The notes beneath the pieces are model-generated. The model was not told where the DNA came from. It did not search any database and saw nothing but the letters and a program-made list of their open reading frames with translations. A stretch of DNA of 64,000 nucleotides, from NCBI GenBank assembly GCA_050084515.1, contig CM114271.1, positions 45,570,001 through 45,634,000 of the forward strand. Reading direction: 5' to 3'. Source of the stretch: Blasia pusilla. Its lineage: Eukaryota. How positions within the stretch are numbered: position 1 is the first letter of the stretch; every line of letters begins with the position of its first letter. Both the position numbers and the translations under genes were made by a program. Of this stretch, positions 16,048 to 64,000 are shown piece after piece.

Positions 16048-16235
16048 AGGAGATACTACGTAGGTTTCAATTTCGAATTTTTCTGTGACATGGATGATAG
16101 GAAGGCGACTAACAATGGGGCCACATGAGCACCCGACCTTTTTGCTCTTAGCGTCCTAGAGATGTATGTCGTGGTAGGTAGGGATAGATGGCTATCTGGA
16201 GTTAGAGGGACCTAACCACCAGCTAGAGGGGCGAT

Positions 16236-17004
16236 TGGAGATATTTTGGTACTTCTTGCCTCTGTGTATGGATGCCATGAGTTAGCATGGGATCGTGTGT
16301 GTTTGTGTGTGTGTTCGATGAAAGCGATGTATGTTGTGTAGCGATGTGTATACGCACGATAATTGTGACGACTGTTAGAATAGATCGATGGGATCTAGCA
16401 GAGCGTCTTCACGAGTAGTAGAGGACATGCCCAGGAGGTTGAGGATGACCACCTGAGGCCTCAGGAAACCTGAGAGAGCAATTTTTCCCTTCGTTTCGGC
16501 TCATTTGGAGCCATATAGAGAAACTTACTATTTTGGGTAAGTTTCCATGTTGGTGATAGTTGACTTTCCACTTTGGGAAGTGGCCCTTGACCCGCTACAC
16601 CAGGTCAAAAGCCAAGGAGGTGACCTACGAGCATAGGTTACCGTTGAGAGGGCTTGGGAGAGGGAAGGGAGTATACCTCCAAGAGAGAGAGCTTGAGAGC
16701 TCATTCTCTCTTTGTTGAACCTCTTGGCATGAGGCGGCGGAGCTATGGTCCCTTGCCTTGTGAGTGTAACCCAAGCCTCTCATTAGGAGAGTGGGTTTGG
16801 TTTGACAGGAGAGAGAGAGTGCACACCTTTGAGAGCTATGGTGTGAGATGGTGTAGAGAGAGATTGAATCTTACTTTAATTGGAGATATTTTGGTACTTC
16901 TCGCCTCTGTATATGGATGCCATGAGTGAGCATGGGATCGTGTGTGTTTGTGTGTGTGTTCGATGACAACGATGTATGTTGTGTAGCGATGTGTATGCGC
17001 ACGA
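16236..17004 (+). repeat. 3' LTR of the methyltransferase-bearing gypsy element, with its first 124 bp repeated at 16881-17004
   Basis: Begins TGGAGATA after AGAGGGGCGAT; the homologous LTR piece at 53587 also begins TGGAGATA. Confidence 0.7.
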
Positions 17005-19384
17005 AAACTTCCTCAAGCCAAGTGCGCGAGAGGAGGTGAAAAACTTAGACGTAAGGTCCACATTTGAGTGACAGAAAGTACCATTGTCAAAGTAGTAGTT
17101 CATATTTGCCCCATAAGTAGTTTCCAGCAATGATGTGTAATTAGTTAATTATAATGCATGTGAGGTGTTGTGAATTTGTTTGTTGTTTCCAACTTTCCTT
17201 GTGTTGGCCTTGAAATGATTCAGTGAAAACTCAGAGGAAGGAGTTGGAAAAGATTGGGGAGTACAGATAGATGCTCGTTCAAGCCATTCATTCCTGCACT
17301 TTGAAGTTCCTTGATATGGCCATGGTTGAGAATGGGATTGCAACCATCAAACAACCACTCAGGGACCTTCCTTTCTTCATTGTTGTTGATGAAGGAGACA
17401 ACACTCAATCAGGTGGTAAGGGATCTACCCAAAGCTCCAAAGGTAGTGGTTCTCTACCCGATCCTATATCTTCAGCTTCGTCAAAGCGCCCAATTATTCT
17501 TGTTGATGATACTTACGTTAGCCAGATTGTAGCCATGGAGATCGCCGTTGCATCACCATTATCAAGAGGACCATCAAGTGTTGTTGTGAATCTTAGAATC
17601 TTTTGTTGTGTCTGGCTGAGGTATATCCTGAAAAAGTAGCAGTGAACCATACCTCTGCTGAAATTATTCTGATCCTGGTATCCATCCTTATACTCGGAAA
17701 ATCTCATGTTCTAGCTTGTGCACTTAATGATGATTCCTATGATCTAATTAGTGTGTGCGTCAAGATCCTTTCCAACCCCGATGATGTCATGCAAACTGTA
17801 TGGCTCAAGTATTTTCGGGAGAGCTTTGTGAAAATGATCCCAGAGAGATAGCACCGCGAGACAAAGGAACAACACTGCACATGTGTCTAAAGCACAGTCG
17901 AATGCCCTTAGTGACTTCCATCACTTAAGAGGAGAAAGGTAACGAAACTGAATGGACTTTCCTGTCATTCTAGACAATAGAGAACTTAGTAATTGTTTTG
18001 TGTATCAACTTAGCTAAGAAATTTGTGAGGCATTCAGGGAATGACCCAAATTGATTTGGAAGGTAAGGTGAAGAATCACGTGAAGCAAGCTATTGGGGAG
18101 TTCACTAAAGATCGTGACAACACAAAAAAACTCAACAGAGTTCTACAACTCATAGGATTCAGCGACCCAATTTATTCTTAGGCATATGTGACGGTTCACC
18201 AGATCAACAAGTGAATTCATAATGGCTACCCAAGATCTTCAGTCTATCGAATGTAAGAACTCATTCACATGTTGAGCTCAAATTCTACCAGAATTAGCAT
18301 AGGCGGGAAATGTAAAAGATTCCCATAAGCTCAACCACCTACAAACTCCATCGATGCTACATTAACACACTGAGTCGGCGTGCGTGCCTCAATACAAAGA
18401 CCCCATCACTTCTAAGCCCTTGACTCAACTTTTAGGCCCTCAATTGCACGCCACGGACTCTACTATCAATTCGTTTGAAGTCCCTCTCAATGCTCCATTT
18501 GGAATGCCCCTTTCGAACGAACAAGAACCAACAATCACATTAGAATTGACTTCAACATTGCACGAACCAGCAATGAGATTCTAGCGTGGGAATTGAAGAG
18601 CTTGAAGAGTCTTTCTTGCAAGACATTAGATCCTAGCAAGGTCATCCTAACAATCATATACAAGTAGAAATGGTAACATACAATAGCAAGAGAGTATCCG
18701 ATTGACGACACCTTTTCACATCTCCAACTCCTCCAATAAATCTTGCTCACTCACTTCTAGACCTGGAAGCCTTCTAAATTCCTTACTACCAGGCTATCAG
18801 CCAAAGGTTAGCTTATTTGCAAACACATTCACCGTTTGTAGATGAAATTGAAGACCAAAGTTAGAGGGAACTTTTGAGTGGAAGATAGGCAACCTCCAAT
18901 GTTTAAGGGCCAAATGTCTTTCACTCTCAAGAGAAGTGACTGTTTGTGGATGAAATCGAAGATCAAAGTTAGAGGGAACTTTTGAGTGGAAGAGGTGCCA
19001 TTAAAGCCATAGGCACCGAGTGCATGATGAACCAAATCATCTCTTATTTTTGAAAGTGAGACTTTGGAAGTATATTTTTTCCTTTCCCACACGCCAAACT
19101 GCCGTAAATATGTTTTGAGAGCTTCACTTCTTATAGACTCAATAATTATTTTTTTACTTTTATCCTCCTACTTTTAGTAACCCCCCCTATATTTGGTTAA
19201 TAGTATAGATGCTACCCACGTAGAAATATTTCTTGGCATATGTTACCGCTATACCATATGTTGCCTTTGCGACCCTTAGTGTGGTGAGGGGAAAGGCATT
19301 TGAGGCATCTGTAGAATATTTGGCTCCATTAATTTAGTTATTCTCTTAAATAGGATACATTTTGAAATCGGAGGAGGATTGAAT

Positions 19385-19494
19385 GGACACGTGTCAACAT
19401 CAGAAGAGTTTTCTCTAACCCCATCCTCTTTTAATTATATAAATTAAAAAAGATGGGTTTAGAGAATCCCTCCTTCTGTTATTGATACATGTCC
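19385..19494. repeat. Imperfect ~110-bp inverted repeat (MITE-like hairpin)
   Basis: GGACACGTGTCAACATCAGAAG..TTCTCTAACCCCATC..TTTTAATT pairs with AATTAAAAAAGATGGGTTTAGAGAA..CTTCTGTTATTGATACATGTCC. Confidence 0.65.
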
Positions 19495-20974
19495 TCTATC
19501 ATGGTAGATGAGGCGTAGGGCGAGATAGTATGGAGGCCTTAGGAAGGTCTTGTACTTCCCTCTTTTAAAAGGTCATATGTGATCTTTTACCAGGTGACAT
19601 AGGAGTGTAAGTCACCCTTCCCTTTATGAGGAATGGCAACCTTGGAGAGGCTTACCCTCCCATCTATGTGTGTAATCACTTGGACCTATAAGGTTGAGGA
19701 TTAGATGGTAGTTTGTCTCATGAGGGAACCACATGTGTAGTTGTTAAGGAGTTAGTACTTGGTGTACTCTAGGTTATTAGTAACCTCATAAGGGGGAGGT
19801 TACATGTATGTATAGGTCACCCATAGAGATGCCTAGGGGGAGTATACCTCAGATGAAGCTCATTCAAAGCTCATCTTCCTTGGGAGTTAGGATCAGACCC
19901 ATGTTGGGATCTGTGATACTGAATATTTTGAGACAAACTTGGGATTAAAATGATTGAATTTTTTATTAATAATTGATAAACTTTGAAGACCCCTATCAAA
20001 TCTGCCCTTGAATTCATGATTTTTTTTTAACGTTTATCCTATACTAAGCAAAAGTAAAAAATGGGTAAGGTTTTAGTAATAATAATTAATTATACTTGAC
20101 TCAAATTCAAACATCTTCCCCGATGAAATCTTCTAGAGTCTCTTTCATTTGTTCAATCTTTCCTCATTTGAAAATTTAAAATTATTTTTTCTAGGTTCAT
20201 GCAAACAAACTTTAAAGTTTAGTTTTGAGGGGAAATCAAAATTTCTTTTGGGAAAAAAAGAAAAGGATAATATGATAATAGTAGGACAAGAATTATTCTT
20301 CAAGAAAAAGGAAGACATCTTATTTCTATATTATTTTTAACTTTCAAGTTCAATTGGGGAAAATACTAATTCCTCTTTGGGGGAAAAAATCACCAAAATA
20401 AGATTTTTTTTGTATTTATTGGAAGATGGAGATTGGAAAAGGGATAAATTATTTTTTTAAGATTAATAAAAGAAAATACATATTTGAATTGAATTTTAAA
20501 GGAAAATAATGTTTGAATTGTGATTAGTGAGCAATATTATATGGGGTATAATTTGAAAGGGATTTGAGTGGAATAGAAAACAAAATTTCCTTATCAATAA
20601 ATATTATATCTAAATAAGTACATCTAAATATTACTAATTTAGAATTGTTTTGAGAAAGTTAGATAAATAAATAATTTGTGCCTTGATTCATATGTTATGG
20701 AAAGGGAAATTGAATTTTAATAGAGAAGGAATAGATTTTGTTAGAATTTTATGGAAGGGTGAATTTACTTACTAGACTAAGATATCATTTAAATTTGAAT
20801 TGAGGAGTGTAATTACTTACAAGAGTGAAATGTAATAATTCTTCTAAGATTTTATAGAATAGAAATTATTTTTAATTAGAAAATAAGAATATGATTATTT
20901 TTTAAAATAAGAGTATCAATTAAAATGCGATATTTTGGGAAAGTACGTAATCTTGAATTTAAGTAGGGTGGTGT

Positions 20975-21980
20975 AGATGGTCCCCAAGTTACATCTATAA
21001 CTCTTGCAGAGTCTCAACCCAAATGAAGTTGGGACGACAATCTCAAAAATGTCTTTTTTGGACCCAAACCATTAAACCTTGAATGAAAAGAAGGCCTTTT
21101 AATTTTTCATCTTGTCCAACTTTCCTATCTTGAGCTGAATTTTGCAAACATAATCACCAAAGTGTATCTAGCACTCATGCAAAGTTTCATCTAATATGGA
21201 GTTGTTACCAAAACCTAAAAAATTGGTAAGTACTTTTTGGACCCGAACCATTATATTTTCAATCAGAAGAAGACTTTTTCAATTTTAATCTTGTCCAACT
21301 TTCCCATCTTGAGCTAAAATTTGGCCTACATGGTCTTGAAGGTGCATATTCCACTCTACCAAAGTTTCAATTAAAATGGAGTTGTGACCAAAACCTCAAA
21401 AATTAATAAGTCCTTTTTGGACCAGAACCATGTATCAAACCTTCTATCAAAATACAGTTTTTTTATTTTTCATCTTGTCCAACTTTCCCATCTTCAGTTG
21501 AAATTTGGCACACATGGTCCCCAAGGTGGATCACCCACTCTTGAAAAGTTTCACCCACGATGGAGTTGAGACCATAAGATCTAAAATTAATAAGTCTTTT
21601 TTGGACCCGAACATTCAAACCTTTAATCAAAATAAGATTTTTCCAATTTTCATCTTGTCCAACTTTTCCATCTTGAGCTGAAATTTGGCCCATATGGTCT
21701 CCAAGGTGCATGTTCCATTTTTGAAAAGTTTAACCAAAAATCCAGTTGTGAACAAAACCTCAAAAATTAATATATCCTTTTGGACTAGAACCTTATATTA
21801 AACCTTGGATGAAAAGAAGGTCTTTTCATTTTTCATCTTGTCCAACTTTCCATCTTGAGTTGAAATCTGGCAGATATGGTTCTTAAGGAGGATGAAGCAC
21901 TCTTGCAAAGTCTCAAGCAAAATAGAGTTGTGACCAAAACCTCAAAAATTGGTAAGTACTTTTTGGACCAGAACCATCTA
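20975..21980. repeat. ~181-bp tandem repeat, about 5.5 copies
   Basis: TTTTTGGACC..AACC recurs near 21059, 21239, 21419, 21602, 21781, 21964; CATCTTGTCCAACTTT recurs with the same period. Confidence 0.9.
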
Positions 21981-22618
21981 TACTATTAACGAAACATGGG
22001 GAGGTTACTAAAAGGGGAAAGAAAGAAAAGTGAAGACGCTATAAGAAGTGAAGCTTACGAGGAGTTGAATATTTTTTGTGGTTACCAATTTGATGTTAGC
22101 CTTTGGTATTTCTTTTTGCAATCTATTCTTTGCATCTCGGTCCTTCTTGGCATCTCGGCCTCTTTTCTATTGAAATCAGATCTTGGACTATAGTTGGACT
22201 AATCGTGCCGTGGTTGGCATGTGTTCGAGACATTCAAAAATACTAGACGAACATGTGTTGCACACACTGATCACCTGCTAGATGGAGACACATGTAGACG
22301 TTTGACAGACATTGTAAATTTTGAATATCGATAAGTATTTCTTACTTTCCCTCACTTTCCTACTTTGGAGTAGGAAGAGGCGGGAAAACTCGAGTCCTGC
22401 ATCCACGTTGAATCTCGCAGCTTTCTTGCTTCCTAATCTACTTCAAATTGGTAACCCTTCCTTATTTGCATCCATGTCAAATTTGCTTGCTAATGTTCTT
22501 TAATTGTGCAACTCCTCCTTATTTGCTGCCACGTCAAAGTTTTCTTGCAGATTAGTAGCCCGCAACTCCAACTATTATAGCATTTCAGCGCATTGAATTC
22601 ACGATAAGTAGGCCTTCA

Positions 22619-48664: not shown

Positions 48665-50400
48665 TAAGCTATTGGTTACAAATGGGTTTACAAAATCAAG
48701 TGCAATCAAGATGGTACAATTTACAGATAGAAAGCGAGATTGGTGGCTAAGGGCTATGCACAATAATATGGCATCGATTGTGAGGAAACATTTAGCCTTG
48801 TTGCAAAGATGGCGACTACGAGAACAGTGGTTGCAATTATAGTAAGTAAGAAGTGGAGATTACATCACATGGACGTCAAGAATACCTTCTTGAATGGAGA
48901 TCTATACAAGGAGGTATATATGACTCAACCACCTGGATACGAGCATCCTAAGTTTCCATTTCGCGTATGCAGGTTGAAGAAAGCTCTATATGGGCTCAAA
49001 CAAGCTTCTAAGAGCTTGGTATGGCAAGATCACATACGTCCTACAAGATTTGGGTTTTAGGATATGTGATTCTGATTGCCCGTTATATATCTTGAGAGGA
49101 CAAGATCATATGGTTCTCATTGTGTTGTATGTTGACGATCTCCTGATTAGTGGGAGTACTGAAGAAATGGTACAACAAGTCAAGCTTAAGTTACAAGCAA
49201 ATTTTGATATCAAGGACTTGGGAGAACTTGAGTACTTTCTTGGTATTGAGTTTATCAAAGTTGGAGAGAGCATGTGGTTACTACAACGACAATATGCTCT
49301 TCATATGCTTTCAAAATAGGATATGACGGCTTGTAAGCCAATCTCTACATCGTTACATCAAAGTGTGAAGCTAAGAGTGGATGAAGGAGAGTTGCTTGCA
49401 GATTCTAATATGTACAAGTGCATGGTTGGAAGTTTGATCTATCTAACTTTAACTATATCAGATTTGATTTATATTGTTGGCCTAGTGAGCCAGTTTATGC
49501 AAGAACCTCAAAAACCTCACCTTGACGCTGTGAGGAGGATTATACGATTTGTGAAATTCTCTATTCAATTCGGGCTTCAATTTGAACTGTCTCCGAGTTT
49601 TCAATTAGAGGGATTCACAGATGCTGATTGATTAGGAATCGTGTCTGATCGACACTCCACATCTGGTTATACATTCTTTGGGAAGCGCAGCTATACGTTG
49701 GGCTTCAAAGAAGCAACCTACAGTTGTTTTATCTTCAACAGAGGCTGAGTACAGAGGAGCAACCAATGCAACATGTGAGGCGGTGTGGCATCATCGATTA
49801 CTTCTTAAGATTGGTGTTAGTAACTTAGGACCTAGTGTAACATATGCAGACAATATTAGTAGCATCAAGCTTGCTAATAACCCAATGTTTCATGCTCGTA
49901 CAAAGCATGTTGAGGTGCACTATCATTTTATTAGAGAGAAAGTGCTTGCAAGAGAAATTGATCTTGTGCATATAAATACAGATTGGCAAATTGCTGACAT
50001 CTTTACAAAGGCATTGTCTAGAGATAAGTTTGAGATGTTTAGAAATAATTTAGGCGTTAGAGATATCGATATGAGCTTAAGGGGGAGTATTGAAGATAGA
50101 GTTACAATCAAGCTGATGAGACACCTGAATTGCTATATTTGGTACTCACACGAAGTAGGGAAGCTTAATCTTGGTTAGTCAGTTAAGCAAGATTCTCTTA
50201 ACTAGGGTAAATTAATCATAGTTAGTCTAACTCGAGACTATGGTTAAGGTTAGGGTTAGGTTTGCTTGTATATACCTTATATAATTGAGAAGGGGATCAT
50301 CTTCCATTCATTCTCTCATTGCAAATTTTGTTCTCCATGGTGGTGTGTGAGTGTGAGAACCGTTTTCCACCAGTTATGCTTCTTTAGCAGTGTTCCACAC
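48665..50400 (+). mobile_element. Ty1/copia 3' fragment: RT, RNase H, PPT and probable LTR from 50088
   Basis: KARLVAKGYAQ, HMDVKNTFLNG, LKKALYGLKQA, LYVDDLL, GFTDAD, SSTEAEY, HARTKHVEVHYHFIRE, ADIFTKAL; TTAAGGGGGAG at 50077-50087. Confidence 0.92.
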
Positions 50401-50404
50401 TTTT

Positions 50405-51835
50405 ATGATTGGTCATTTGGAGATTTTTTATGACGCAAAAGTGCATGTTCCAACAAGATTTCATGATTTATAGGCCAGCGGAAGAAGAGGGGAGCCAAAA
50501 AATGTCAAAGAAAGAGAAAGATGAATGATGTAGGAGTAAAGGTCCAAGTCTCCTTTCAATTTTACTTGTGTTACCCACGCACCCGAAGCTCTCACCGTTG
50601 GATGGACGTGAAACACAAGGGATGTAGGTTTGGCAATGTCCTCTTGCTCTTTGACGGTGTGGATCTTGGATATCATTCTCTATACTCAGTTAAAAATTTG
50701 GAAACCTCACTTAGGGTTTTTGATTTTGAATTCCTTCTATAGGTAGTCATTTGGATATTTTTTATGATGCGGAAGTGCATGTTCCAACAAGGTTTCATAA
50801 TTTATGGGTCAGCGGAAGAAGAGGGGGGCCAATAAATGTCAAAGAAAGAGGAAAATGAATGATGTAGGAGTGAGGTTCCAATTCTCCATTGAATTTTACT
50901 CATCTTATTCACGCACTTAGAGCTCCCACCGTTGGATGGAAGTGAAACACAAGGGATGTGGGGTTGGCAATGGCCTCTTGCCCTTGGATGGTGTGGATCT
51001 GGGATATCATTCTCCATATTAAGTTAAAAATTCTGAAGCCTCATTTTGGGTTTTTGATTTTTAATTCCTTCTATGGGTTGTCATTTGGAGATTTTCTTTT
51101 TCTATTGGGAGCATGAGATGGAAGTGCATGTTCCAAAACGTTTTCATGATTTATGGGCTAGCAAAAGAAGAGGGTAGCCAAAAAATGTCAAAGAAAGAGG
51201 ACGATGAATGATTTAGGAGTAAGGTTCCAAGTTTCTATTGAACTTTACTCGTCTCATCCACGCACCCGGAGCTCCCACAGTTGGATGGACGTGAAACACA
51301 TGAGATGTGGGGTTGGCAATTCCCTCTTGCCCTTGGACAGTGTGGACCTTGGATATCATTCTCCATCCGCAGTTTAAAATTCTGAAACCTCACTTACAGT
51401 TTTTGAGTTTTAATTCCTTCTATAGGTGGTGATTTGGAGATTTTCTATCACACAGAAGTATATGTTCCAACAAGGTTTCATGATTTATGGGCCAGCGGAA
51501 GAAGAGGGGGGCCAAAAAATGTCATAGAAAGAGGAAGATGAATGATATAGGAGTAAGATTCCAGTCTTCTTTGAATTTTAATCATCTTACCCATGCACCC
51601 AAAGCTCCCACCATTGGATGGACGTGAAATAGGCGGGATGTGGGTTTGGCAATGCCCTCTTGCCATTGGACGGTGTGGATCTTGGATATCATTCTCCATA
51701 CTCAGTTAAAAATTCTGAAACCTCATTTAGGGTTTTTGATTTTGAATTCCTTCTATGGGTGGTCATTTGGAGATTTTATTTTTTCTGTTAGGAGCGTGAT
51801 GCAGAAGTGCATGTGCCAAAAAGGTTTCATGGGCA
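50405..51835. repeat. ~340-bp tandem repeat, about 4.2 copies
   Basis: GTCATTTGGAGATTTT..GTGCATGTTCCAA..GAAGAAGAGGG recurs near 50410, 50744, 51078, 51428, 51760. Confidence 0.9.
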
Positions 51836-53284
51836 CGGGGATGAAAGAATAAAGTTTGGACGTGAGATCAATATGGTGTTGGACGTTTATGAGAGTTTAG
51901 ACACGGATGCATCGATGTTGATACATCGTCTACTAATGTGAGGATGACAAGGATATTTTTTGAATGACGTGGAATGTGAGGGATTTTGAAGGCTTGATGT
52001 GGCATGAAAGAGGAGGATGACATGGGAACTTGATGACGTGGGGTTCGTGTTTGGCACAATTGACTAGGGGGTTCGTGTTTGGCACGGGATAAGAACAACG
52101 AGCACGCAAAGTGGAGTGGGCCATTTGAGCTTGTTGTGAACCGAGAGGTCGGTGTGCACGATTGAGATTCCCAAACCACTCTGAATTCAATGACCCTTCA
52201 TTGGATGGCTTTTTGGCTTGGTGTCACCCGACTTGCTATCTCCCAAGTTCACACCTTCCCATTCGGAGGTTTTTCAGACCTCTACTTTCTTTTTTTTCTC
52301 AGTCTTAACTCCTTGCCAACGCGCCCTAGCTACTTTGTCTACTGCGTACACAAGAGCATGAGTGACAAAGAGTGTGTGCCTACTTTTTAATTTCCAATTT
52401 CTGAAATGTGAACCAGATTCTTGATATATATCCTACAATGCAAGCGGCAATATTTGCAGTATTTCAAGACGTTGGGCAATGAAAACCGAGTGCTATATCA
52501 AAATTGGAGCTTGGATGTTTGCTGAGCTGACGCTGCATTTGATTTCAAGTACTCCCTTGCAAAGTATGAATGCACCATGTATGTACTAGTGTGTTGTATG
52601 CTCGCCAGTGCTCCCCTGCAAGGAACAAATGTAGTCTACTACTATGTAGACTCTCGTTGATTACATGGACATAATGGCTCTGGTCCCCAATAATGATAGA
52701 ACGTAGTCTACTACAATGTAACATTAGTAGCTTGAATCAAGGATCTACATTTTGACTGAATGTGTTATGATACGAAGAATCTCAGCATGTAAATATTGAA
52801 TCCAAATTTATATTTGGTAGCTTTTGTATTCCTCTCGTGTATTACACTCTGTAGTAATTTTCTGCCCACCTCATGAACTTGTTTGAGATATAGAAAACCA
52901 AACATTGGCTAAGGTCTTTGTAGGATGTTAATCAAATAGTCCAGAAATATTTTCTCATCAATTAGGGTAGCTGGAAATCGGCCCAGTGAATCATTTAGGC
53001 AGAAATAGTTCCACTTTTGGCAGCTCAATGAGTGAAGAAGGAAAAACTTGCTTGGAAGATCTTGAATCTTACAACTTTCCCTTTTTATTTCATCAAAATA
53101 AGAAGATAATGAATCTAGCAGGCACTAGCTCACCTACCATTGTCGTTTGATGTTGCAAAACCAGATGGGTCTTTTGCCATCTGGGCTATGGGCAGTACTA
53201 ACACTACCAATAGCAATAGATCCAAGAGTCCTTGAGGCCCAATGTACTGCACCTCCTATTGAATAGATCTACATTGGTAGCATA

Positions 53285-53440
53285 TGTGGATAACTTGCGC
53301 TTTTTAGGATTTGATACTAGAGTCCAGGTTTTATTTTTGTGGAAAGACGCAATTTTAACCTCCGTAGCAGTTTGCCATTCATGAACATCTAGTCTAGAGA
53401 GGGCATTTGTTATAGTGATTGGATCAGATTGGATACAAAA
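53285..53440 (-). pseudogene. Copia RT N-terminal fragment
   Basis: DPITITNALS..EWQTATEVKIASFHKNKTWTLVSNPKKRK resembles EP.T..EAL..W..AM..E..SL.KN.TW.LV..P..RK. Confidence 0.65.
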
Positions 53441-53586
53441 CGAAATAAGAATGTTTGAGCCAGCAACATCATAACTATGTTTTGGTCTAGATGTTTGTAA
53501 TGACTTCTTGTGATGAAAAGAAGTGGGCAGATGTCTCATGGATTTTTCTTTAGCAACAGCACTTGCAAGATCCAATAGAGCGCCTT

Positions 53587-53991
53587 TGGAGATACTAAAG
53601 GATAGCCTCAAGAGGCCGAGTATGACCTGCTGAGGCCATGGATAACTTATGAGAGCTGGTTTTCCCTTTGTTTTGGCTCATTTGGTGCCATATTGAGGAA
53701 ATAAATATTTCGGGTAAGTTACCATTTTTTTTAGTTGACTTTCCACTTTGGAAAGTGGCCCTTGACCAACTAGAGTACGTCAAGAGCTAAGGAGATGACC
53801 TGCAAGCATAGCTTAATGCGGAGAGGGCTTGGGAGAGGGAAGGGTGTATGCCTCCAAGAGAGAAGGCTTGAGATCTCATTCTCTCTTTGTTTAACCTCTT
53901 GGCATGAGGCGGCAGAGCTATGGTCCTTGCCCTGTGTGTGCAACCCGCCTCTCATTAGGAGAATGGGTTTGGTTTGACATGAGAGAGAGTG
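53587..53991 (+). repeat. LTR piece of the same family as 16236-16880, interrupted by MULE copy 2
   Basis: Starts TGGAGATA; collinear with ~16445-16821 (TTGACTTTCCACTTTGG, CCTCTTGGCATGAGGCGGC, GGGTTTGGTTTGACA..GAGAGAGTG). Confidence 0.85.
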
Positions 53992-56900
53992 GGGGGCTGG
54001 TATTCTGGCAGGAGAGAGTAAGAGAGGAGAGGAAGAGAGGAAGAGAGGAGAGTCTCTCTTAAAAAAAAAGGGCCAAATCCGCCTCTTCTCTTCAAAACTT
54101 TTTGACATATTTGAAATTTTTGTTTGCTTTCAAATTCAAGAAATATTTAGAAGAGAGTATTTAGTGGTCCACATTTGGCCCTAAAAAACCTCCTCTTTCC
54201 TGGGGGCGAGAAAAAAGGAGACATCATAAGACCACTACAAACATTTTTCCATCACTCTCCATGTGAGCCTAAGTTTCTTAACATTCCCTGTCTCGGTCAA
54301 CAAAAAGCAGTGCCCTTGGTATTTTTGTTGGAGGACCACCCAGATGCCAACCTCTCTTTTTGCAGGGATTGTTGCCTGCATCATGGCCTCCCCTAAATTT
54401 CCCCATAATTACCCCATAACCATTCATAACTTGGTTATGAATGGTGTCTGCTCAAGACCAACTTTGTGAAATGTGAACACATCAGATCCTAAGGCTGAGA
54501 AACCGAGAAGCTGCACCCCTCCCAACCCGTAAGAAAGCTCACCATAAGAAAGGAAAGATTTTTAGAAGTGATTTTCTTCCACCCTGCACCCACGACGATC
54601 TAACAGGTTGGGAATCCGAAATGGCAATCCGACAGGTAGTAGGAATCCTGCACATCTTAGACAAGAAAAGAAGCCTACAACTGGTTTGACGAATGTAGGG
54701 GAACGAGCCAAAAGTTAAGAAGCCCGCCACAATGCATCAGAAGTTGGTCTCACCGGGATAGAGTCCGATCACTCAAGCAGTCAACCAGTCGGAATCCGAC
54801 AGCTTGCTTGGAAATGGTTAAAAAGTTGCAGTGGGAAAAAAGCAAAAATTTGCAACCCGTCGGAATCATACGGGTTGCAGAATTGTAATTCTGAGTAGCT
54901 AAAAGAACACAATCCACAAGTCCAAAAAAATATTCCAGCAAACTTTTACAAACACCATTATGGGTTGAAAAAATCTCGTCCTTTATTACCTCCGAAGGAA
55001 CCTTAGAAATGTACATTTGACCTAGTCTATGATTTCTTCAGCCTCATCATCTACAAATTTACTCCTAACTCTCCTCGGTGACAGTACCAAAGGAATGTCC
55101 TGGGATACAAGTGGCTCCCCAGGCCGATTGTAGACGGGGATCGAAAATGTTGGCGAATTCGAGAGCCTTGGGCCCCCCCTAGGTACACCATAACGGTCCC
55201 ATGTAACCTGATTTGAGTCCCACCGCCTTCCTCGACAGTATACCTTGTACGCTCTGCAATGTGACACCCATCCACTATCAATATGTGCTCTGTCCCCGGT
55301 AATACCATTATGGCAATCGCACAGGTAGTAGGAATCCAACACGTCTGAGAGAAGAAAAGAAGCCTACGCCTGCCTTTACGAGTTGAGGGGAAAGTGCCAA
55401 GGGAAGAAGCCCGCCAGACTGCCTCTTAAGTTGGACCAACAGGGAAAGAGTCCAATCAAGCAACTTGTCGGAATCCGACAGGTTGCCTGGAAGTGGTAAA
55501 AAGGGTGCAGTGGTCAAAAAGTGAAAAGTTGCAAGCAAGAGAAATCCGACGGGTTGCAGTGGTCATAAAGTGAAAAGTTGCAAGCAGGAGAAATCCGACG
55601 GGTTGCAAAATAGAAGTCCACGGAGTACATAGACGATCACATTCGAAAAGACAAAAAATGTTCAGCAAACTTTTACAAGCACCACCATCGCTCGAAAAAA
55701 TCTTCTGCTTTATATCATCCGAAAAAGCTCTGAATCAGACATTTGATCTATTCTATGAAATCTTTTGCCTCATCATCAAAAAACTCCCTACTCCAAACGC
55801 TGCAGTCAAGCTGGGTCATTGAGTTCTTTGAACTCACTCGTCATCGTCCGAGAGCTCTTGCAAAATTACTTTTGGCCTTGCCCTCCCGATTTTTGGAATC
55901 GTTGGAAGTGACGATGGAATCACTACCAAGGGTGGGTGGAACCGAGCTCTCCGCGGTGGAGAGTTGTACGCCCAACGAGCCTTTCGTGATTTCGCCTTTG
56001 CCTCCTTGCAAAGGTCAAACGATTCGCCTTCCCTCGAGGCGTAGAATGTTCTGCCACTCTGCCAGCGCCTTTGATACTTGCCCTGAAAGTCCCACTAAGT
56101 CGAACACCAAGTCACCCGGCCTTGAGCAGAGCTCGATGAGCGTTTGCATCAGGGCTGGCGACTTTTCCCTTCCTCCCAGAAGTGGGGTACTGTCTTGCAT
56201 ATAAATTCCCGGGGGGAAATTGTACAAACTATCTAAGTTGTATCCATCTTAGCATGGATCCACAGGATCCTGGATCTTGAACACCTGGAAATTGTGCTCG
56301 GGCCGAACGAAGCAGTACACGTAGGAGTGGTCCATCTGTAAATAAGCACGTTGGAAACAATGTCAAGAACTAAAGAAGTCGGCTTTGAGAACATTTTCAT
56401 TCATCGACTTTGGATCAACTGTCGAGTCCGACGGGTTGTTTTGTCCGGACCAACCCGCCGCCTTCCGACGGGTTGGGTGACTAAGACAACCCGTCGGGCT
56501 CCGTTGTTTTTGTCCGTGAGCAACCCATCGGAAGTCGACGGGTTGCTGGCCTAGAGCAGCCCATGCTCGCCTGAGAGCAACCCGTCGCTATCAGACGGGT
56601 TGCAGCTTTCCGGAAACAGAGGGAAAAACCAAAAGCAACTGCAACCGTCGGGTTCCGACGGGTTGTAGGTACACCACGGTTTTCCCTGTGTATGTGGGAA
56701 AGATGCAACCCGTCGGTTTCATCTTTCCCATCACGGACAAAAAAAACGGAGATTGACACTCATTATACTCACTCAACGGAGATGAACACTCATTATACAC
56801 ATCATTAAAATATAATTGAGATTATAGTACAGGAATTGAGCCTTACCCGAATCTGACTCGTCGCGGATCGGAGTGGGTACTCGTTTTTTATGATCCACGA

Positions 56901-58920
56901 TTGCGCCGTCCTCCACTTTAGCAACCTCTTGACGCACTCGAGGTTGAAGAGCTCGTCCTCGCTCCCTCCAGGCAACACCAAGAAGCAACCCCTGTCACTC
57001 AGATAGGCGTCTGCAAAGGAGAACAATAGCGCAATCTGGTCATAAGAGAGCGGCACATTCCACTCAGGTACCTCGTCCGACGGATTCTCGCCCCAAAGTC
57101 GTAACCTCGAGGGCAGATCACCGATCAAGAGATCCACCGCAACCTCTTCGACCACTCCATTCACCGCCCAGCGCGTGCGTGTTCGTTTGCTGGAGCTTCC
57201 GCCCAGCGTTGTCAATTTATCGATGGTGGTGTCGACGCTTGAGAATCAAGCTCTTGACTCATCCAAAGAAAGGAGTGAATCAAGGAGGACGCTTGTCCGG
57301 GTCGTTGTTTGTCTGTGTCTTTCCAAGGATGATGGACTGTATTCTCCTTGGGACAACCCTGGCACCTCTCGCTTTCGCTTCTCCCGAGTCTGCGGACGGT
57401 TTGTCGGGGTCTCTATGACCTCAGACTCTGGTGGGGTTGTTTTCGCCAGGACCTGGTCCGACCCTCTCTCCCCGCCGCCGACGATTCCGCCTCGGCCTTG
57501 AATCTTCAGCCTCTCTTTGGGAAGACTCGGCCTCTCGAAGTTTTCCTTCCTCGCCTTGCCTTTGAGACCCATTTGTGGATTTGTCTTTGGTGTGGGGACC
57601 TTGGAAGCCAACTCCGCTGTCTCGTGGGCCTGCTCTTTGCATCTCCTCCGAAGAAGTCTTCAGCCGCACTAAATTGGGGATGTTGTCTTGTCCTCGAGGC
57701 CCCTTTGCATCATGAAGCACTCGTAAATCCTTATCGGTGATGTCTTGAGGGTCGTTGAAGTCGAGCCAAATGGGGCAATTCTCCACCTCCCAATCGGACA
57801 TATGCTGCCCCATCTCCACGTCGTGCACATGGAGAATGTCTCGCATCCGGCGAAGCCCACAATTTCAAGGGTGCCGATAATTTTCCCCACGCACTGCATT
57901 CTTACATTGGATGAGGTACTTGAAGACCATCCGTTGGGCGCTTTTAGTCGAACAGTAATCGGCCGTCATTGTCCTCTGAGATCTCGCTTCTTCTTCGCTT
58001 GATCCCGTTTGTTCCCCTCTACTTCTTCGTCAAGCTCGCCGAGGAGGACGCAAACCTTGAACGTTGTCTTGAATCCTGGTTTTTGGTTGGCTTATCCCGG
58101 ATGTCGCCGAGCCAAATCTCAAATCTCGTAACTTTCAAGGTTTGCTTCATCGGGATGGGCTCTATTCTTCGAGCTCCGCTTGCAGGACCGCCCAAAGACG
58201 GACTTCCCGATAACCCGCAACGCGCCCCGTAACGACCATTTGCGGAGCGGTGGGAGATCATCGATCGGACACACCCAGAGGATGGTGTGCCGCCCTCTTC
58301 GGGCCTCTGTGCCCTCGAGACCGATTTTCATCGGTCGGATCCTCCTAAACTCGCTTATGCCGGATAACGCAAAACCGATGCACGCGATCCAGGGACACTT
58401 TCTCCCCAATCCGACCATGCAGATCTTCATCCCTTTTCGGGCGCTTGATAATCGCCTTGGCTCCTTGTAGAACTCCGGACCAAGTTTGGGGTTGAGAATC
58501 TTGATGTATCGCTGCATCTTGCTCGCCGTGTATTTCGTTCTTGTCGCAGATAGTGCGGTTCGATGAATTTCAGCAAGACCGAGACGCAGATACCTTCTCC
58601 CTCCGCTCCGGCTCGGTCAGGCGCTCTTCTTGCGGCCTGTATCTTCGACCAAAGCAAAGGATGGTTAATTTGCGCATCTTGGGAAATAAACTTATTTGCC
58701 CAAGTTTTCTTTTTAATCTGAGCACCCTTTGCAAGCATCAGATTGACAAGGGCATCGCCCAAGAACCCCCTGTAGTCTCCCAGAAGCGTCGTAAGCACCT
58801 TCCTCACCCGATTGCAGTCCTGGATCCAGTGGTGGGTGACATTCCCCTCCGATACAATCCTGCACATCCAAACTCAACCCGTCAGAAAATTTGTAAGTTA
58901 CATGGGTTCCTGCAACCCGT

Positions 58921-60194
58921 TGTCGTATAGTAAAATCAACCAGTGTGTAAACTCCTTCGTCATTAAGTGTTAGATAGAGTTTCATTAGTATTAAGTAAAT
59001 TGGCTTAGAAAAAGGAGATTCTTATGTTTAAACCTCTTTATGGTGCCTATTTTATGCGGGCCCAACTTTAGGAAAAGGAGGTAATAAATAAAAGATGACT
59101 TTATAAAAGTAAAGTAGTTGCTTTAATGAAAAGCAAAAGTAGTCTTGGTTGGTGGCTAGGTTAGTTGGGGTAATTTGGAAAATATCATGTGGGTAAAAGA
59201 GGATATTTTGGAAGAGATAAGAGGAAATCTACTTGTGTCAAAATGTGATTGGCTAAGCCTTGGGAGGAAGCCATGTGGCACAAGATAAGATAAGCTCTAT
59301 TTCGTACTCTTGTGGATCCCTTGTGAGTATATAAAGAGGAGGGACCTTCAAGGGTTCATCACCTTCTATTCCACATCTTGAGTCTCTCGTGTCTCTCTTG
59401 AGTGTATGGCTTTGGGATTGCTTGCTCTTCCAATGAGAGTGGATCACCCCTCTTGGGATAGTAACTTGACTTTGGTCTATTCTTTGAGAGATTTCTAGAG
59501 TGTGGTGTGTGTGTGTGGGGATGAGAGGTTTGTCACCGTAGAGGAGTTTAGTCATACTAAAATAGTGGAAGTTTTGGCTTGTTACTTCCCCAATGAGAGT
59601 GGATTACCCCTCTTGGGAGAATAACTCCGCCAAAAACCTATTCTTGAGGAGAGTAGAGAATGTGTGTCAAGCATGGATAGGGGTGGAGCACGAGCTGTGC
59701 CCGACTTTCCTTTCCTCAATCCTTACCATGTCAAGGTACTCTTTGTAGATAGGCACTGGTTCACTCGCTATTTAGTTTATCACTTTGGGGAGGCGTTCAT
59801 GAACCAGGTCATGCAATCTCCAACTCCGGTGATTCTTCTTATTGTCACATATGGAAGGACATGGGATTGTACTTTGTATGTCCTTATATAGCGATCCATG
59901 GATGTCAATAGGCCTGCTCAAGTAGGGTTTAACACTAGTTGTGCTATCTTCCTCGTGTACAAGCGTAAAATAGTTTATAGGGATTTTATAGTTAGGAATT
60001 TTGGGGTCCGATGTTACGAAGAAGTGATCGCCTAAGCACTTCCATTTGTGATACCTGTCGTGAGAGAATGGAGAGTGTACATCATAATTTTGTATTGAAA
60101 AAGGAGAACTTATTAGAGAGTTCACCTTGCATCAACCGCATCTACCGCAGCTAGAAGGCCCGCCCTTGCTCGAAGAAAGACTCTCGACACGACA
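58921..60194. mobile_element. Solo LTR (1274 bp), copy B, 4-bp TSD CCGT, inserted in a MULE palindrome
   Basis: TGTCGT..ACGACA; CCGT at 58917-58920 and 60195-60198; removal restores GCAACCCGTCGGACTCCGACGGG. Confidence 0.9.
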
Positions 60195-60800
60195 CCGTCG
60201 GACTCCGACGGGTCGTCACAGCTCAAGGTCGGATTCTAGCAACGAGCTAAATGATGCAACCCGTCGGAGTCCGACGGATTGCATTCAGATTTGCTAATGC
60301 CTGGTTTCAACCCATCGGACTCCGACGGGTTGTGCAACTGAACATACTAATGTGAACATAGCAATTTGACGCGAAATTTGGGGAAACAACTTCCGAATGC
60401 AACCCGTCGGACTCGGAGGGGTTGATTTCGGCCAAAAACAGTTTTGAGGCAAGCAACCCGTCGGACTCCGACGGGTTGCTTTGGGCAAAAAATATTCTAA
60501 ACCTGCGGTCAGTCGAACAACTCGTCGGAGTTCGACGAGTTGCATTCTTCAAAAAACATCCTGACAAGGCGGTGAGACGAGCAACCCGTCGGACTCTGAC
60601 GGTTTGCTTTGGGCCAAAAACTAATTAAATCTGTGGTCAATCGAACAACTCGTCGGAGTCCGACGAGTTGCATTCTTAAAAAAACATCCGAAAAAGTGTC
60701 GAGTCGAGCAACCCGTCGGAGTCCGACGAGTTGCTTTCGGCAAAAAAAAACCTAACCCATTCATCAATCGAGCAACTCGTCGGAGTCCGACGAGTTGCGT
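60195..60800. repeat. Regular palindrome array (~64-bp period) in the intron after the ParB-like exon
   Basis: Units near 60256, 60307, 60399, 60453, 60517, 60581, 60645, 60708, 60772; 60451-60481 is a perfect inverted repeat around one central base. Confidence 0.93.
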
Positions 60801-62377
60801 AAAGTGTTAAAGATACTCACGGTTCATGGCATGCATTGCCATCTCCACCGTCGCCATGTGATGAAGGAATGGGTGAAGGACCACTGCCTTCAGAAATGTG
60901 CCTCCAATGAGTTGGGCCGCTCCTCCGCAAACTTGGTCCACGCCATGAACCTGTGATTTCCATCCCAGATGAAGAAATGCAGATTCCTCATCCAGCTGAA
61001 TTCCGCGAACTCAACTTGCCTTCTGAAATCCTGGTCTCGCATCCTCTAGAATGTGTCAAGCTTTTCCAAGTCCTTCTCCGTAACCAGAGCTTGGGTTCCA
61101 TGCTCGTCGTAAGGCTGAACATAGAAGGGAGGAAAGCTGTCCACGTAGGATGCTGTCGCCGCCGATTGTTTAAGCTTCGCGATGTCCTCGTCGGACTGAA
61201 TTTTATGGACGTATTCCATTGTCCGCAATCGGCAGAGTGGAATCCTCGGGGCGTTGTGGCCTCCATGAGTGCCATCTGCTTTACCACCTGTCAGAACCGG
61301 GACAAGATGAATAAGCTACACTGAATTCCCAATGAATTGCAATTCACATAATTCAAAAAACCCAGATCCTCTCTTACCCGCTCGAAAATGGGGTTGGTTT
61401 CTTGACCAGCTAACTTGTCTGAGACAGAAGCTGGAAAATCGACTGGGAACTCGTCGATCCGATAGAGGTCGATGTCCTCCGCCGGGCTTGGAGTCGAGAA
61501 TGACCGCTCTCCGGCTTCTTCGCCATGTCCACCATCTCCACGCTGGCGGTCCTCATGACCTCGTCGTCATCGATTTCAACTTCTGGCGCTTCCACTATGT
61601 TGATTGTGTCCCCGGACTTCATGGGGGACATTTCCCGCATCTCAACACTTTCGGTTGGACGGGCAGGGCTATCTTCAATGGCTATCGCTTTTTCCCTCCT
61701 CGCTTTAGCCAATTCTGCTCTCCTCACCGACGCGTCCAGACGCTTCTTTTCTCTCTTTTCGTCGGCGATCCTTTTCTTCAAGGCCTGCAACGTCTCAGCC
61801 TCTGCGTTCTGTTTATCGAGCGCCTCTTGAACACGTCTTGCAAGAAGCACTTGGTTGTGCATCTCCGCTTCCCTTTCCCGCTCCTCGATTTCCTGCTGCC
61901 TAATTTCATTTGCCAAACGAGGCCGGAGATCTTGACGCAGAGTCCTAATGGACTTGAGTGAAGCTCCTGACTTGTTGGCTTGTGATTTTTTCCTCATCAT
62001 TTTTTCCGGAAATGCCTCCATCTATGTCCACGACGAATCCCTTGATCAGTCGCCTTGCTGATGTCGAGATGGGTAGCTTGAATTGCCTTGATGGGTAGCT
62101 CGAATCGTCTCGCGATCGTTCAGTTGAACCGTCTCGCTGTCGTTCGGTCAAACCGTCTCGCTGTCGTTCCCTCCTATCGACTCGCGATGTGTCTCCGTGT
62201 GAAACGCCCTTCAGATCGATCATCGCGCGGGAGAGTGAGGAATGAAGATCGCGAAATGAGAAACCGAAATGAGCGATTTTCGCCCTATTCATACTTTTCT
62301 AGCCGTTTGGTGACCGTTGGGTCCCGGTCCTTCGACGGCAACGCGTCGGAGGTTATGGAAGTCCAGAGGTGAAAAAT

Positions 62378-62975
62378 GGCAACCCGTCGGAGTCCGACAG
62401 TTGCGCGCGCCTCCGCCATCCTAGGTACGCCGCCACGCGCGCGCGAAAGCAACCCGTCGAGACCGACGGGTTGAGCGCCGCCGTCCTTTTCGAAAAGAAC
62501 GCGAGGTACCGTGCAACCCGTCGGAGACCGACATGTTGCGCGCCTCCGCCCGTGTTTGGGACGGAACGGACGTACCAGGAAATCCGTCGGAGACCGCTGC
62601 GGTTGCACGCCCTCGTCAAGGGTTAAGAACGCAGCTTCCGTGCAAGTCGCCGAGTCCGGCCTGGTCGCACACTTCATGTAAGCACCACAAGGCGAGGCCC
62701 TTGCGCAACTCGTTGGAAGGCGACGGGTTGCACGCCTCGCCGTCTTTGGGCAAATAGGTGAGGCACCCGCGGAACTCGTTGGGAACAGACGGTTTGCACG
62801 CCTCCGGCATCTTCGGGCAAGAAGGAGCGGTATCCGAGCAACTCGTCGGAGAGCGACGGGTTGCTTGCTTCGTCAATGTTTGGTAGAAGCATGCAACCCG
62901 TCCGAAGCCAACAGGTTGTAGGCTTCAGTTAGCTTCGGGTAATTTTGGAGTTACCAGGACTCCGACGGGTTCCAA
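62378..62975. promoter_or_regulatory. CpG-rich palindrome array in the head-to-head intergenic region (putative bidirectional promoter)
   Basis: Multiple GCAACCCGTCGGAG..CGACGGGTTGC variants between the - strand cargo gene (~62292) and the transposase ATG (63194). Function is inferred. Confidence 0.6.
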
Positions 62976-63193
62976 GTGTGATTTGCAACCCTCTACTTCC
63001 CAAATCCAGTAACATATTGCAATAGAATTGAATGTGTTACAGAATTGGATCCATTGTGTCAGACAATGTCACCCACCAAATTCATCTTGTCAGTAAAAAT
63101 CTGTCAGGAGTATCTATTTTCCTATTCACTATAAATTAAAAATTCTCATTCTCATTCTCATTCTCAGTCTCCTCCCGTTGGAATCTTCTTGGA

Positions 63194-64000
63194 ATGGATA
63201 ATTATGTTAAGCTCACTTGTGGTAGTCATCTGGCGGCCCTTCCTCAATCAGAAATCATTCGACCCCAAGCTCGTGAGTCTTTCATAGCAAAGTGGATGAA
63301 AATTTTTCATCTGCTCGATTTCTTCTCCAATTGGAACCATCTTTGTATCCAAAGATATTAGGTGGACGATACGGAAGACATAATAGGTGAGACGGTCCAG
63401 CCAAAGTGACCTCGCATCGTAAAGTATGGAATCTCCTACCTCTAGCAAATGGTCAATACAGAGTTTACGGCCTGCCCCTGAATTCGTCTGTTTCCCAAGT
63501 AGACGGTCTAGAATTTCCTAGTGCTCCGAGCTCTATGTTTGCAACTCCAAGCTCTGCAGATCCGGCTTCCACTCCAACTTTGCACGCTCGTAACAATGTT
63601 GTTCTTCCTGAAGAGATTCCGGATGTTATCAACCTCAGTGGATCCGCTCGGACACCAATTGGGCCCTCTGTCGCCTACTGTTCCTCTTGCGAGTATTAGG
63701 CAATAGTTTGCTTTGCCTCTCGGCCTTGAAAATGTTCAAGCACATTCTTGTCGATTTAGCCGCCGCCCACGTACGATGGTAATTGCATTTTTGAGTTGCC
63801 TCCACTTGCTGCTCCTGCTCAAAAGAAGGATGGAGGATGCTTGAAGGGTATGGACAGAAAGTCTGATTGTCATCGATGGTGCAGGCTTCAACGGACTAGT
63901 GCTTCCATTCCATATGGTCCTTGGATTGTCTCCCTCCGCCAATGCCTGGGAGCCTTGGAGTGTAGAAGTCCAGCATGCCCGTATCTAGAGCGCAACGGGC
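63194..64000 (+). pseudogene. MULE transposase copy 2, 5' part (frameshifted, cut by window end)
   Basis: Homologous to 7968-8770; MDNYVKLT start; CLGALECRSPACPYLERNG. Confidence 0.88.

Follow-up and report, generated by a model that had tools for sequence, protein, structure and literature searches.

Two dead copies of a probably Mutator-like transposon in Blasia pusilla carry remnants of an accessory gene with a methyltransferase-derived domain, a putative ParB-like segment and palindrome arrays

Accessory genes that combine ParB-like and methyltransferase parts, and inverted-repeat arrays that lie beside ParB-like genes, are known from brown, red and green algal transposons since 2025, and here we examine an element that resembles them in a 64,000-nucleotide stretch of DNA from Blasia pusilla (GCA_050084515.1, contig CM114271.1, positions 45,570,001 to 45,634,000; this whole stretch is called the window and is numbered from its first letter). 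One such case is Sola1-1_Ec32 of Ectocarpus, described as a 21.5-kb element with a ParB-like plus N4C/N6A methyltransferase gene on the opposite strand (PMC12477816; Dinatale et al. 2025). Red-algal Plavaka elements are described as carrying PAG2, an N6A methylase joined to SET, and PAG3, a ParB-like protein joined to a 2-oxoglutarate (2OG) oxygenase, with inverted-repeat tandem arrays adjoining PAG3 and with PAG homologues present on Chondrus Mutator, Zisupton and Fanzor-encoding elements (10.1101/2025.02.11.637652; Petroll et al. 2025). The statement in the original prediction made from this DNA that no description of such a combination was known is outdated by these two reports. Fusions of the ParB-CTPase fold to N6_N4_Mtase domains are reported to be enriched in prophages, and their box II arginine to be needed for nucleoside triphosphate (NTP) binding (PMC12704722). 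Two further points of reference are MpDN4MT1a/b, beta-class N4-cytosine methyltransferases of Marchantia sperm that carry a TSPPY motif and are CG-directed (10.1101/2021.02.12.428880), and DUF3723, a conserved accessory gene of the fungal Starship elements (PMC9156397). Transposon proteins that recognise their own arrays and change epigenetic state are so far known from experiments only for VANDAL/VANC, and the algal ParB-like/methyltransferase accessory genes have so far been annotated only.

The window, which is eukaryotic and repeat-rich, contains two copies of one DNA transposon, both of them dead and neither able to encode the protein of the gene carried on its minus strand (hereafter the cargo gene). 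The parts of this gene can be laid out along the two copies, its last domain has methyltransferase ancestry, it is conserved in liverworts, and it is transcribed at a low level in a strand-specific manner. The explanation that we favor, with belief and doubt in about equal measure, is that a high-copy transposon family, represented in the window by these two dead copies, has a self-recognising accessory protein of ParB-like and methyltransferase-derived parts. A literature search for a land-plant or bryophyte case of this module found none, with the proviso that supplements may hold more, and a bryophyte-type version would extend the module to land plants. Since the copies in the window are dead, the value of the finding lies in the family and not in the locus.

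The element and its minus-strand gene

The two copies are placed as follows.

2620-12356, no strand: copy 1, with complete ends, seated in a Ty3/gypsy reverse transcriptase (RT) and without an equivalent of 60332-62973
53990-64000 (window end), no strand: copy 2, with left end GGGGGCTGGTATTC as in copy 1 and its right part cut by the window end

When 50001-64000 was compared with 1-30000 by blastn, the segments 53990-58920, 60195-60331 and 62974-64000 aligned to 2618-8770 at 89-94% identity. Copy 1 is bounded by a 9-bp target-site duplication (TSD), TGGATTTTG, at 2611-2619 and 12357-12365, and its excision in silico restores the Ty3/gypsy reverse-transcriptase frame, which reads ...AGLDF followed by ARCYIDDIVVFS and leads on to RT, RNase H and RVT domains at 12302-13099. 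The element ends are imperfect GA-rich inverted repeats of ~45-60 bp, the outermost 11 bases of which agree at 7 of 11 positions in a by-eye count. Both the length of the duplication, which falls within the 9-11 bp of Mutator and Mutator-like elements (MULEs), and the presence of terminal inverted repeats are as expected of that superfamily, and it is on these two features that we classify the element as probably Mutator-like; to this extent the MULE with a 9-bp TSD of the original prediction stands. The presumed transposase frames additionally contain, by eye, D...D...DAFHW, GAESVHSSW and a C..C...CKH finger, which may be Mutator-type transposase signatures. A CACTA/Plavaka identity was considered because accessory-gene homology is reported to have led to misclassification as MULEs in red algae (10.1101/2025.02.11.637652), and it was rejected since the TSD is 9 bp long and CACTA termini are lacking.

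The cargo gene is a multi-exon gene that stands head-to-head with the presumed transposase gene. Its location on the strand opposite the transposase, as originally proposed, is upheld by this layout and by opposite, strand-specific RNA. The parts of the two genes, and one foreign insertion, are listed here.

61384-62021, minus strand: cargo exon 1, with its ATG at 62021, encoding a long charged coiled-coil-like helix and an acidic tail (from the open reading frame (ORF) list, the sequence and an AlphaFold (AF2) model)
60823-61290, minus strand: ParB-like exon, ...RIPLCRLRTMEYV...FFIWDGNHRFMAW..., following a GTAAGA...CAG intron
57246-58873, minus strand: conserved middle region of ~1.6 kb with ISYD/VHRF, HWLREWSFW and ENCPIWIDF, located by tblastn of the Riccia protein P0002
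56805-57245, minus strand: N-terminal half of the methyltransferase-like domain, VDLLIGDLPSRLRLWGENPSDEVPEWN...SWIIKN, with VDLLIGDLPS and LWGEN..VPEWN (phmmer matches P0001 and P0002)
55837-56248, minus strand: C-terminal half of the methyltransferase-like domain, the last exon, ...REKSPALMQTLIELCSRPGDLVFDLVGLSG..., in which REKSPALMQTLIEL..GDLVFDLVGLSG is the motif-I region
4466-7609, minus strand: cargo remnant of copy 1, comprising the middle region and both methyltransferase-like halves, with in-frame stops at 7192-7190, 6140-6138 and 5540-5538
63380-64000, plus strand: presumed transposase start, the remainder of which is found in copy 1 only (8037-11953, plus strand, in-frame stop at 9679-9681)
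58921-60194, no strand: insertion of 1274 bp resembling a solo long terminal repeat (LTR), with TG...CA ends and a CCGT duplication, 97% identical to 13412-14698

The first cargo ORF (62021-61413) encodes 203 aa, and AF2 models its residues 20-116 as a single helix with a predicted local distance difference test (pLDDT) score >90; the frame of exon 1 changes near 61480-61560, ahead of a GTAAGA donor at ~61383. The ParB-like exon reaches a GTGAGT donor at ~60822; its reading is broken at 61048-61046, where there is a TAG in frame, and again near 60900, where the frame shifts. The intron after this exon contains the palindrome array 60194-60805 plus the LTR insertion. Further downstream, the middle region of copy 2 is spread over at least 4 frames, and its C-terminal methyltransferase-like half is frameshifted relative to 4466-4924 of copy 1, whose frame is open throughout 4466-5059. 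We infer splicing because GT...AG sites and ORF breaks are present and because homologue gene models end where these exons end. What is presumably the 5' leader of this gene holds a 24-bp tandem repeat of ~3 units (62100-62185).

Transcription was followed in two stranded RNA runs with the same species label (X22 and X23), aligned at >=88% identity; depth is low, and the reads possibly come from any copy of the family. Across 55660-56327 the first mates gave plus-strand depths of 6.75-8.03 and 5.7-11.9 in the two runs, against minus-strand depths of 0.01-0.99 and 0, and in most bins of 56662-58665 and 60336-62339 the plus strand stood at 0.1-4.8 and the minus strand at 0-1.5. The reverse holds at 63008-64000, where first mates of X23 were mainly on the minus strand (0.94-3.79 versus 0-0.08). 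Under the usual library chemistry, these first-mate strands point to minus-strand cargo RNA and plus-strand transposase RNA, which fits the head-to-head layout. In a DNA run, the bins of the ParB-like and helix parts had depths of 5,313-21,074 and those of the methyltransferase-like and middle parts 3,466-9,298; depth is not copy number, and these broadly similar values suggest that many family copies carry the 5' half of the cargo gene.

Several neighboring features were seen in passing. The interrupted Ty3/gypsy pol gene (RVT_1, RT_RNaseH) occupies 2022-2619 and 12366-13099. The LTR-like insertion in copy 2 landed inside one palindrome and is foreign to the element. It is one of two units of ~1.28 kb (58921-60194 and 13412-14698) with TG...CA ends, 4-bp duplications (CCGT and GCGT) and the look of a solo LTR. 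No other part of the window is transcribed nearly as much as this unit, which reaches up to 100-200x depth as plus-strand RNA; an RNA joint that links its end to its start (60194>58921) occurs in 1 read of X22 and 8 of X23. The sequence left of copy 2 (53577-53989) is 82.7% identical to 16400-16817, which lies ~4 kb right of copy 1, so that another repeat family sits beside both copies. A low-GC block (20001-22000) has a GC fraction of 0.298, compared with 0.35-0.53 in the rest of the window.

The palindrome and its arrays

Both copies contain many occurrences of a CpG-rich 27-bp palindrome, CAACCCGTCGGAGTCCGACGGGTTG, with the consensus GCAACCCGTCGG-N3-CCGACGGGTTGC. At <=3 mismatches, CAACCCGTCGGAGTCCGACGGGTTG gave 35 strand matches in the window and 0 in each of 100 shuffles, and full palindromes (<=2 mismatches per arm) fell inside the two copies in 33 of 33 cases, with none elsewhere in the 64 kb. 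The palindromes are thereby confirmed as the element's own, as the original prediction had it, and so is their presence in introns and in the divergent promoter region; they occur downstream of the gene as well. Four arrays are present in copy 2, all in non-coding parts.

54777-55608, no strand: array past the stop codon of the cargo, inside a tandem duplication of ~680-730 bp
56417-56722, no strand: array in the intron that separates the methyltransferase-like halves from each other, where RNA depth dips
60194-60805, no strand: intronic array that follows the ParB-like exon, made of 5.4 repeats of a 64-bp unit, with a 128-bp higher-order unit
62369-62975, no strand: array of ~66-bp units placed between the start of the transposase and the ATG of the cargo, where the two genes diverge

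Two of these, 60194-60805 and 62369-62975, flank the ParB-like exons, so that inverted-repeat arrays are found here beside a ParB-like gene. The observed/expected CpG ratio is 1.08-1.46 in the arrays 56417-56722, 60194-60805 and 62369-62975, versus 0.63 for the window between 20 and 50 kb. Paired bases occupy 87.4% of arm positions, and the 128-bp unit of the 60194-60805 array holds two symmetric variants of the palindrome. Compensatory (double) changes were counted in 6 cells, compared with 2.5 in shuffles, and 10 of 500 shuffles scored as high; most of these changes stem from a single CTC/GAG variant that the higher-order repeat has amplified, for which reason they constitute weak evidence of selection on symmetry. 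A metagenome scan with the palindrome pattern returned 0 loci.

One alternative is that the palindromes are unrelated to the cargo protein and serve as cis elements of transposition, such as transposase sites or hairpin repeats, or are simply a recombinogenic satellite. Copy 1 offers some grounds for this, as it has additional single palindromes ~200 bp from its right end (12133), ~900 bp from its left end (3534) and in a transposase intron (10158 and 10313). Additionally, the arrays have a strong tendency to fold into hairpins (z -10), and palindromes took the LTR insertion and mediated the deletion in copy 1. The junction of that deletion falls inside the ...GACTYCGACGGGTT... that two palindromes have in common, with T in copy 1 where copy 2 has C, and this makes copy 1 a deletion derivative formed by recombination between palindrome units. 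However, most palindromes are in internal arrays around the cargo gene and not at the termini, the compensatory signal is weak and largely one amplified variant, and the algal cases, as described, tie such arrays to a ParB-like gene (10.1101/2025.02.11.637652). We hold this alternative, whether as cis elements or as a satellite, to be rather improbable.

The arrays might instead be sources or targets of small RNAs, with transcribed hairpins feeding RNA interference in host silencing or self-regulation and with no protein bound. Such a role would make use of the strong hairpin potential of the arrays and of their position within transcribed introns, and it could account for an opposite-strand RNA joint at the neighboring palindromes 60387 and 60453 that is seen in reads of both RNA runs and in one contig. 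This joint may be a hairpin or template-switch signature, or it may reflect an inverted copy elsewhere. The 12-bp stems are short for Dicer substrates, however, and RNA depth over the arrays is very low, and we regard the small-RNA explanation as very unlikely.

The tandem duplication in the 3' part of the element pairs 54621-55051 with 55310-55777 (~680-730 bp, 75-81% identical). An RNA joint at 55295>55825 was considered as an intron and rejected, as its ends are non-canonical and it fits a copy variant in this duplication; the reads probably come from family copies with a different repeat number.

The ParB-like segment and the methyltransferase-derived domain

The ParB/Srx pattern consists of a strand starting with I-P-L, followed by GxxRxxA (box II), which is nucleotide-binding. 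The IPLCRL...WDGNHRFMAW segment of the cargo fits this pattern, with box II present as GNHRFMA at 60961-60941, within FFIWDGNHRFMAW at 60976-60938. A word-based search with the ParB-like exon, read through the TAG with an X at the break, found one protein, P0004 (240 aa, from an ENA record), at E 4.6e-11 and 37% identity over 89% of the query. P0004 has an intact frame, keeps both IPLCRL and FFIWDGNHRRLAW (GNHRRLA) and continues as the window does past its frameshift. The language-model neighbors (Atlas) of P0004 residues 90-240, which we use as leads only, were fungal DUF3723 clusters at 0.96, which make up 13 of the 30 hits, a cluster at 0.92 in which 11% of the members carry ParB_N, and viral DUF6551 at 0.90. 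The sole trace of a ParB profile was DUF1015, presumably a ParB clan member, at E 0.12; P0004 and the ParB-like segment had no hidden Markov model (HMM) match to PF12520 (DUF3723), and tblastn of two ParB-like ORFs against plasmids gave no match. DUF6551 fusions are listed among the ParB-CTPase proteins that have been assayed (PMC12704722). Together, the motifs, the one intact homologue and the language-model lead make it fairly probable that the segment is ParB-like, and the ParB/Srx assignment of the original prediction holds as far as GxxRxxA, which occurs both in the window and in P0004.

For the last exon the searches are numerous, individually weak and concordant. Pfam PF01555 (N6_N4_Mtase) matched at E 9.3e-5 (22.9 bits) in copy 1 and E 0.002 (18.6 bits) in copy 2, an NCBIfam methyltransferase at E 0.011, and five PHROG methyltransferase families with a best E of 2.6e-6. 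Among PDB sequences, phmmer placed M.RsrI (E 0.018) and DpnA (E 0.03) best, and these two account for 4 of 5 matches at E <=10; the alignment covers the HPTQKP...DxFxGSG region and sets GDLVFDLVGLSG against GSTVLDFFAGSG of M.RsrI, with a degenerate loop. In plasmids, tblastn returned 335 records, and among the 25 listed 22 lay under an annotated DNA methyltransferase and 3 lacked a feature or annotation. In phages it returned 213 records, and among the 30 listed 24 were annotated as DNA methylase or methyltransferase, 4 were unannotated and 2 were labelled only 'gp52' or 'unknown', with RefSeq twins that say DNA methyltransferase. The three plasmid methyltransferases closest to the motif-I exon match PF01555 at E 1e-36 to 1e-46 and have no ParB domain, and a search for longer homologous proteins with the motif-I exon found none. 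The upstream, N-terminal half gave no match in profile searches, and the nearest named clusters to Riccia P0002 in Atlas (again a lead only) were UPF0020/N6_N4_Mtase methyltransferases at 0.85. Complex prediction for the two methyltransferase-like halves gave a score of 0.32 (mark 0.34), which carries no weight in either direction. On these several concordant searches we accept that the last domain descends from a beta-class N6A/N4C amino-methyltransferase.

Motif IV of amino-methyltransferases, located after strand 4, is defined as (D/N/S)PP(Y/F/W). At the corresponding position the 4 aligned sequences read DLPS, DVPS, DLPK and DLPT, i.e., D[LV]P[SKT] in 4 of 4, with DLPS at 57119-57108 in copy 2; the altered motif occurs in the window as well as in two Riccia homologues. 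Motif I reads DLVGLSG and not DPFxGSG (LVFDLVGLSG at 56110-56081). In both copies motif I is C-terminal to the motif-IV-like exon, which is the beta-class order. Hence the beta-class claim survives in its ancestry and motif order but not in a canonical motif at the true motif-IV position. If NFPPG was the catalytic motif that the original prediction had in mind, that identification fails, as NFPPG (56221-56207; NSPPG in copy 1) precedes motif I by ~30 residues and corresponds in place to the segment ahead of HPTQKP, not to motif IV. With motifs IV and I altered in this way, canonical N6A/N4C activity is doubtful.

Exhaustive phmmer of the motif-IV-like exon against 1.84 billion representatives yielded 3 proteins at E <=1e-3, of which 2 are true homologues: KAL2653794.1 of Riccia fluitans and KAL3687003.1 of Riccia sorocarpa, at 30-38% identity. 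Both span the middle region, with ISYD-V-RF, W-FW and NCPIWIDF, as well as the N-terminal half of the methyltransferase part. The third, P0003, was dropped as low-complexity and unrelated by eye; a near-homologue search with P0002 recovered only itself, and a single metagenome locus from an alignment scan (L004, a 31-residue match) was judged spurious from its ORFs. By these searches the cargo family is rare in protein databases and present in liverworts. Between the window copies the ratio of nonsynonymous to synonymous change (dN/dS) is 0.61 over 636 codons, and 0.35-0.81 by piece.

These data bear on the possibility that the minus-strand region is a functionless host or foreign fragment captured in the manner of a Pack-MULE. 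The stops and frameshifts that riddle both copies, and the persistence of copy 1 without the 5' half, could be read this way. Against capture there are the homologues in two Riccia genomes and an intact ORF in a third source, a dN/dS below 1, a divergent promoter region of the gene's own with strand-specific RNA, and similar DNA-run depth on the ParB-like and methyltransferase-like parts (depth, again, not being copy number). We consider functionless capture highly improbable.

In the explanation that we favor, an intact element would have an accessory gene of ~1,000 codons, divergent from the transposase gene, whose product would comprise a long N-terminal helix, a ParB/Srx-like segment (IPLCRL ... 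WDGNHRxxAW), a middle region and a beta-class-derived C-terminal domain with D-[L/V]-P-x as motif IV. This protein may recognise the 27-bp palindromes in its own promoter, introns and 3' region, much as ParB does with parS, and may then assemble on the element in cis and either alter its chromatin state or shield it from silencing. The methyltransferase-derived domain would act as a module for binding S-adenosylmethionine (SAM) or DNA and not as a canonical amino-methyltransferase. The ParB fold, the binding to palindromes and the effect on silencing are all putative, the last two being proposed by analogy with other systems.

A number of results speak against this explanation. Both copies are broken, copy 1 lacks the ParB-like half, and copy 2 has suffered the solo-LTR insertion, an in-frame stop and frameshifts. 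A dN/dS of 0.61 is mild constraint only, mixed with post-insertion decay. No canonical splice joint was among the RNA joints listed. Neither P0004 nor the exons of the window matched a ParB-family profile in Pfam, NCBIfam or PHROGs, or anything of that family in PDB, which was searched by phmmer and by profile, and the AF2 model of P0004, built on three alignment rows, had a pLDDT of 41 and was unusable, so that the ParB/Srx claim gains neither a profile nor a fold match. Likewise, the MULE claim lacks a transposase profile: Pfam found no transposase family in 9 transposase ORF pieces (E <=0.1) or in a 245-aa transposase read-through (E <=10), NCBIfam did no better, and tblastn against plasmids for IS256 relatives gave no transposase match; the gene is spliced and broken, which lowers the power of profile searches (PF10551, PF00872, SWIM finger). 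The PF01555 scores are under the 26.7-bit gathering cut-off and span only profile positions 165-220 of 221, the motif-I end. The motif-IV position departs from the (D/N/S)PP(Y/F/W) definition, and the consensus residues of motif I are not kept either. Finally, hhalign with three plasmid enzymes set VDLLIGDLPS on VDLVIADPPY at a probability of 0.3% and E 0.19; it also put SDRGCFLVL on the next strand, which is topologically right and not significant.

A stronger version of self-recognition, and one of the readings in the original prediction, would be active self-marking, in which a working N6A/N4C enzyme is brought to the palindromes by the ParB-like domain and writes N6-methyladenine (6mA) or N4-methylcytosine (4mC) around the arrays. 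It would be in keeping with the placement of the motif-IV region before motif I, with N6A/N4C enzymes as the closest sequence matches, with the high observed/expected CpG ratio of 1.3-1.46 that the arrays keep and with the use by liverworts of a beta-class N4C methyltransferase at CG sites (10.1101/2021.02.12.428880). The loss of the second proline and the aromatic residue of motif IV in all four sequences, the altered motif I and the sub-threshold Pfam score argue otherwise, and inactive methyltransferase domains in transposons have a precedent in DIRS1 (PMC4738411). On balance we think active self-marking unlikely, and we continue to favor a self-recognising protein whose methyltransferase-derived domain has another role.

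A broader and quite unlikely conjecture is that an ancient self-recognition cassette with parS-like arrays hops between superfamilies across eukaryotes and reached bryophytes on a Mutator-like element, its methyltransferase domain being now conserved as a non-catalytic or differently catalytic module and perhaps sharing ancestry with the liverwort sperm N4-cytosine methyltransferases. In that case the accessory gene of a transposon would be related to an epigenetic writer of the host. For experiments on whether such proteins bind, clamp, methylate or shield, the family provides usable reagents in its single 27-bp palindrome, the arginine of GxxRxxA and the D-x-P motif.

Comparison with described systems

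One of the systems compared is DUF3723, which resembles the putative ParB-like segment as its top language-model neighbor (0.96) and is likewise a transposon-borne accessory gene of unknown function, but which occurs in fungal hosts on tyrosine-recombinase carriers and whose PF12520 model gave no HMM match here. VANC of the Arabidopsis VANDAL MULEs is a MULE accessory protein with short target motifs arrayed in the non-coding DNA of its own element (PMC10398659). It is not known to have a ParB or methyltransferase domain, we neither found nor claim a sequence relation, and the likeness is a functional analogy only. MpDN4MT1a/b bring a prokaryote-type beta-class amino-methyltransferase domain into the liverwort lineage, as the cargo does, but are described as host genes with an intact TSPPY and without a ParB-like part.

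The prokaryotic and phage ParB-N6_N4_Mtase fusions share the same pair of domains and the enrichment in mobile elements (PMC12704722). They match Pfam models, in contrast to the cargo, which has no such match for ParB and a weak one for the methyltransferase. Further counterparts are PAG2 and PAG3 of Plavaka, where inverted-repeat arrays lie by the ParB-like gene, self-binding or self-modification has been suggested, and the genes move between superfamilies that include Mutator. As reported, however, the ParB-like and methylase parts of Plavaka are on two proteins with other partners (2OG oxygenase and SET), whereas here they apparently belong to one gene.

Sola1-1_Ec32 provides a further parallel, judged by its published description. 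It too is a large DNA transposon with one gene opposite the transposase that joins ParB-like and beta-type methyltransferase parts, encoding a protein of ~1,100 aa for which binding to, and modification of, the element itself have been proposed (PMC12477816). The two differ in that one is a Sola1 element of a brown alga and the other a probably Mutator-like element with a 9-bp TSD from a bryophyte-like plant, and in that the element described here has a non-canonical motif IV and palindrome arrays that fill its introns and promoter. Set against this algal accessory type, the cargo gene fits in its opposite-strand position and orientation, its ParB part is recognised from motifs only, and its methyltransferase ancestry is supported. 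The element is most suitably classed as a land-plant-type variant of a transposon module, recognised only recently, that combines ParB-like and DNA-methyltransferase parts with cognate inverted-repeat arrays.

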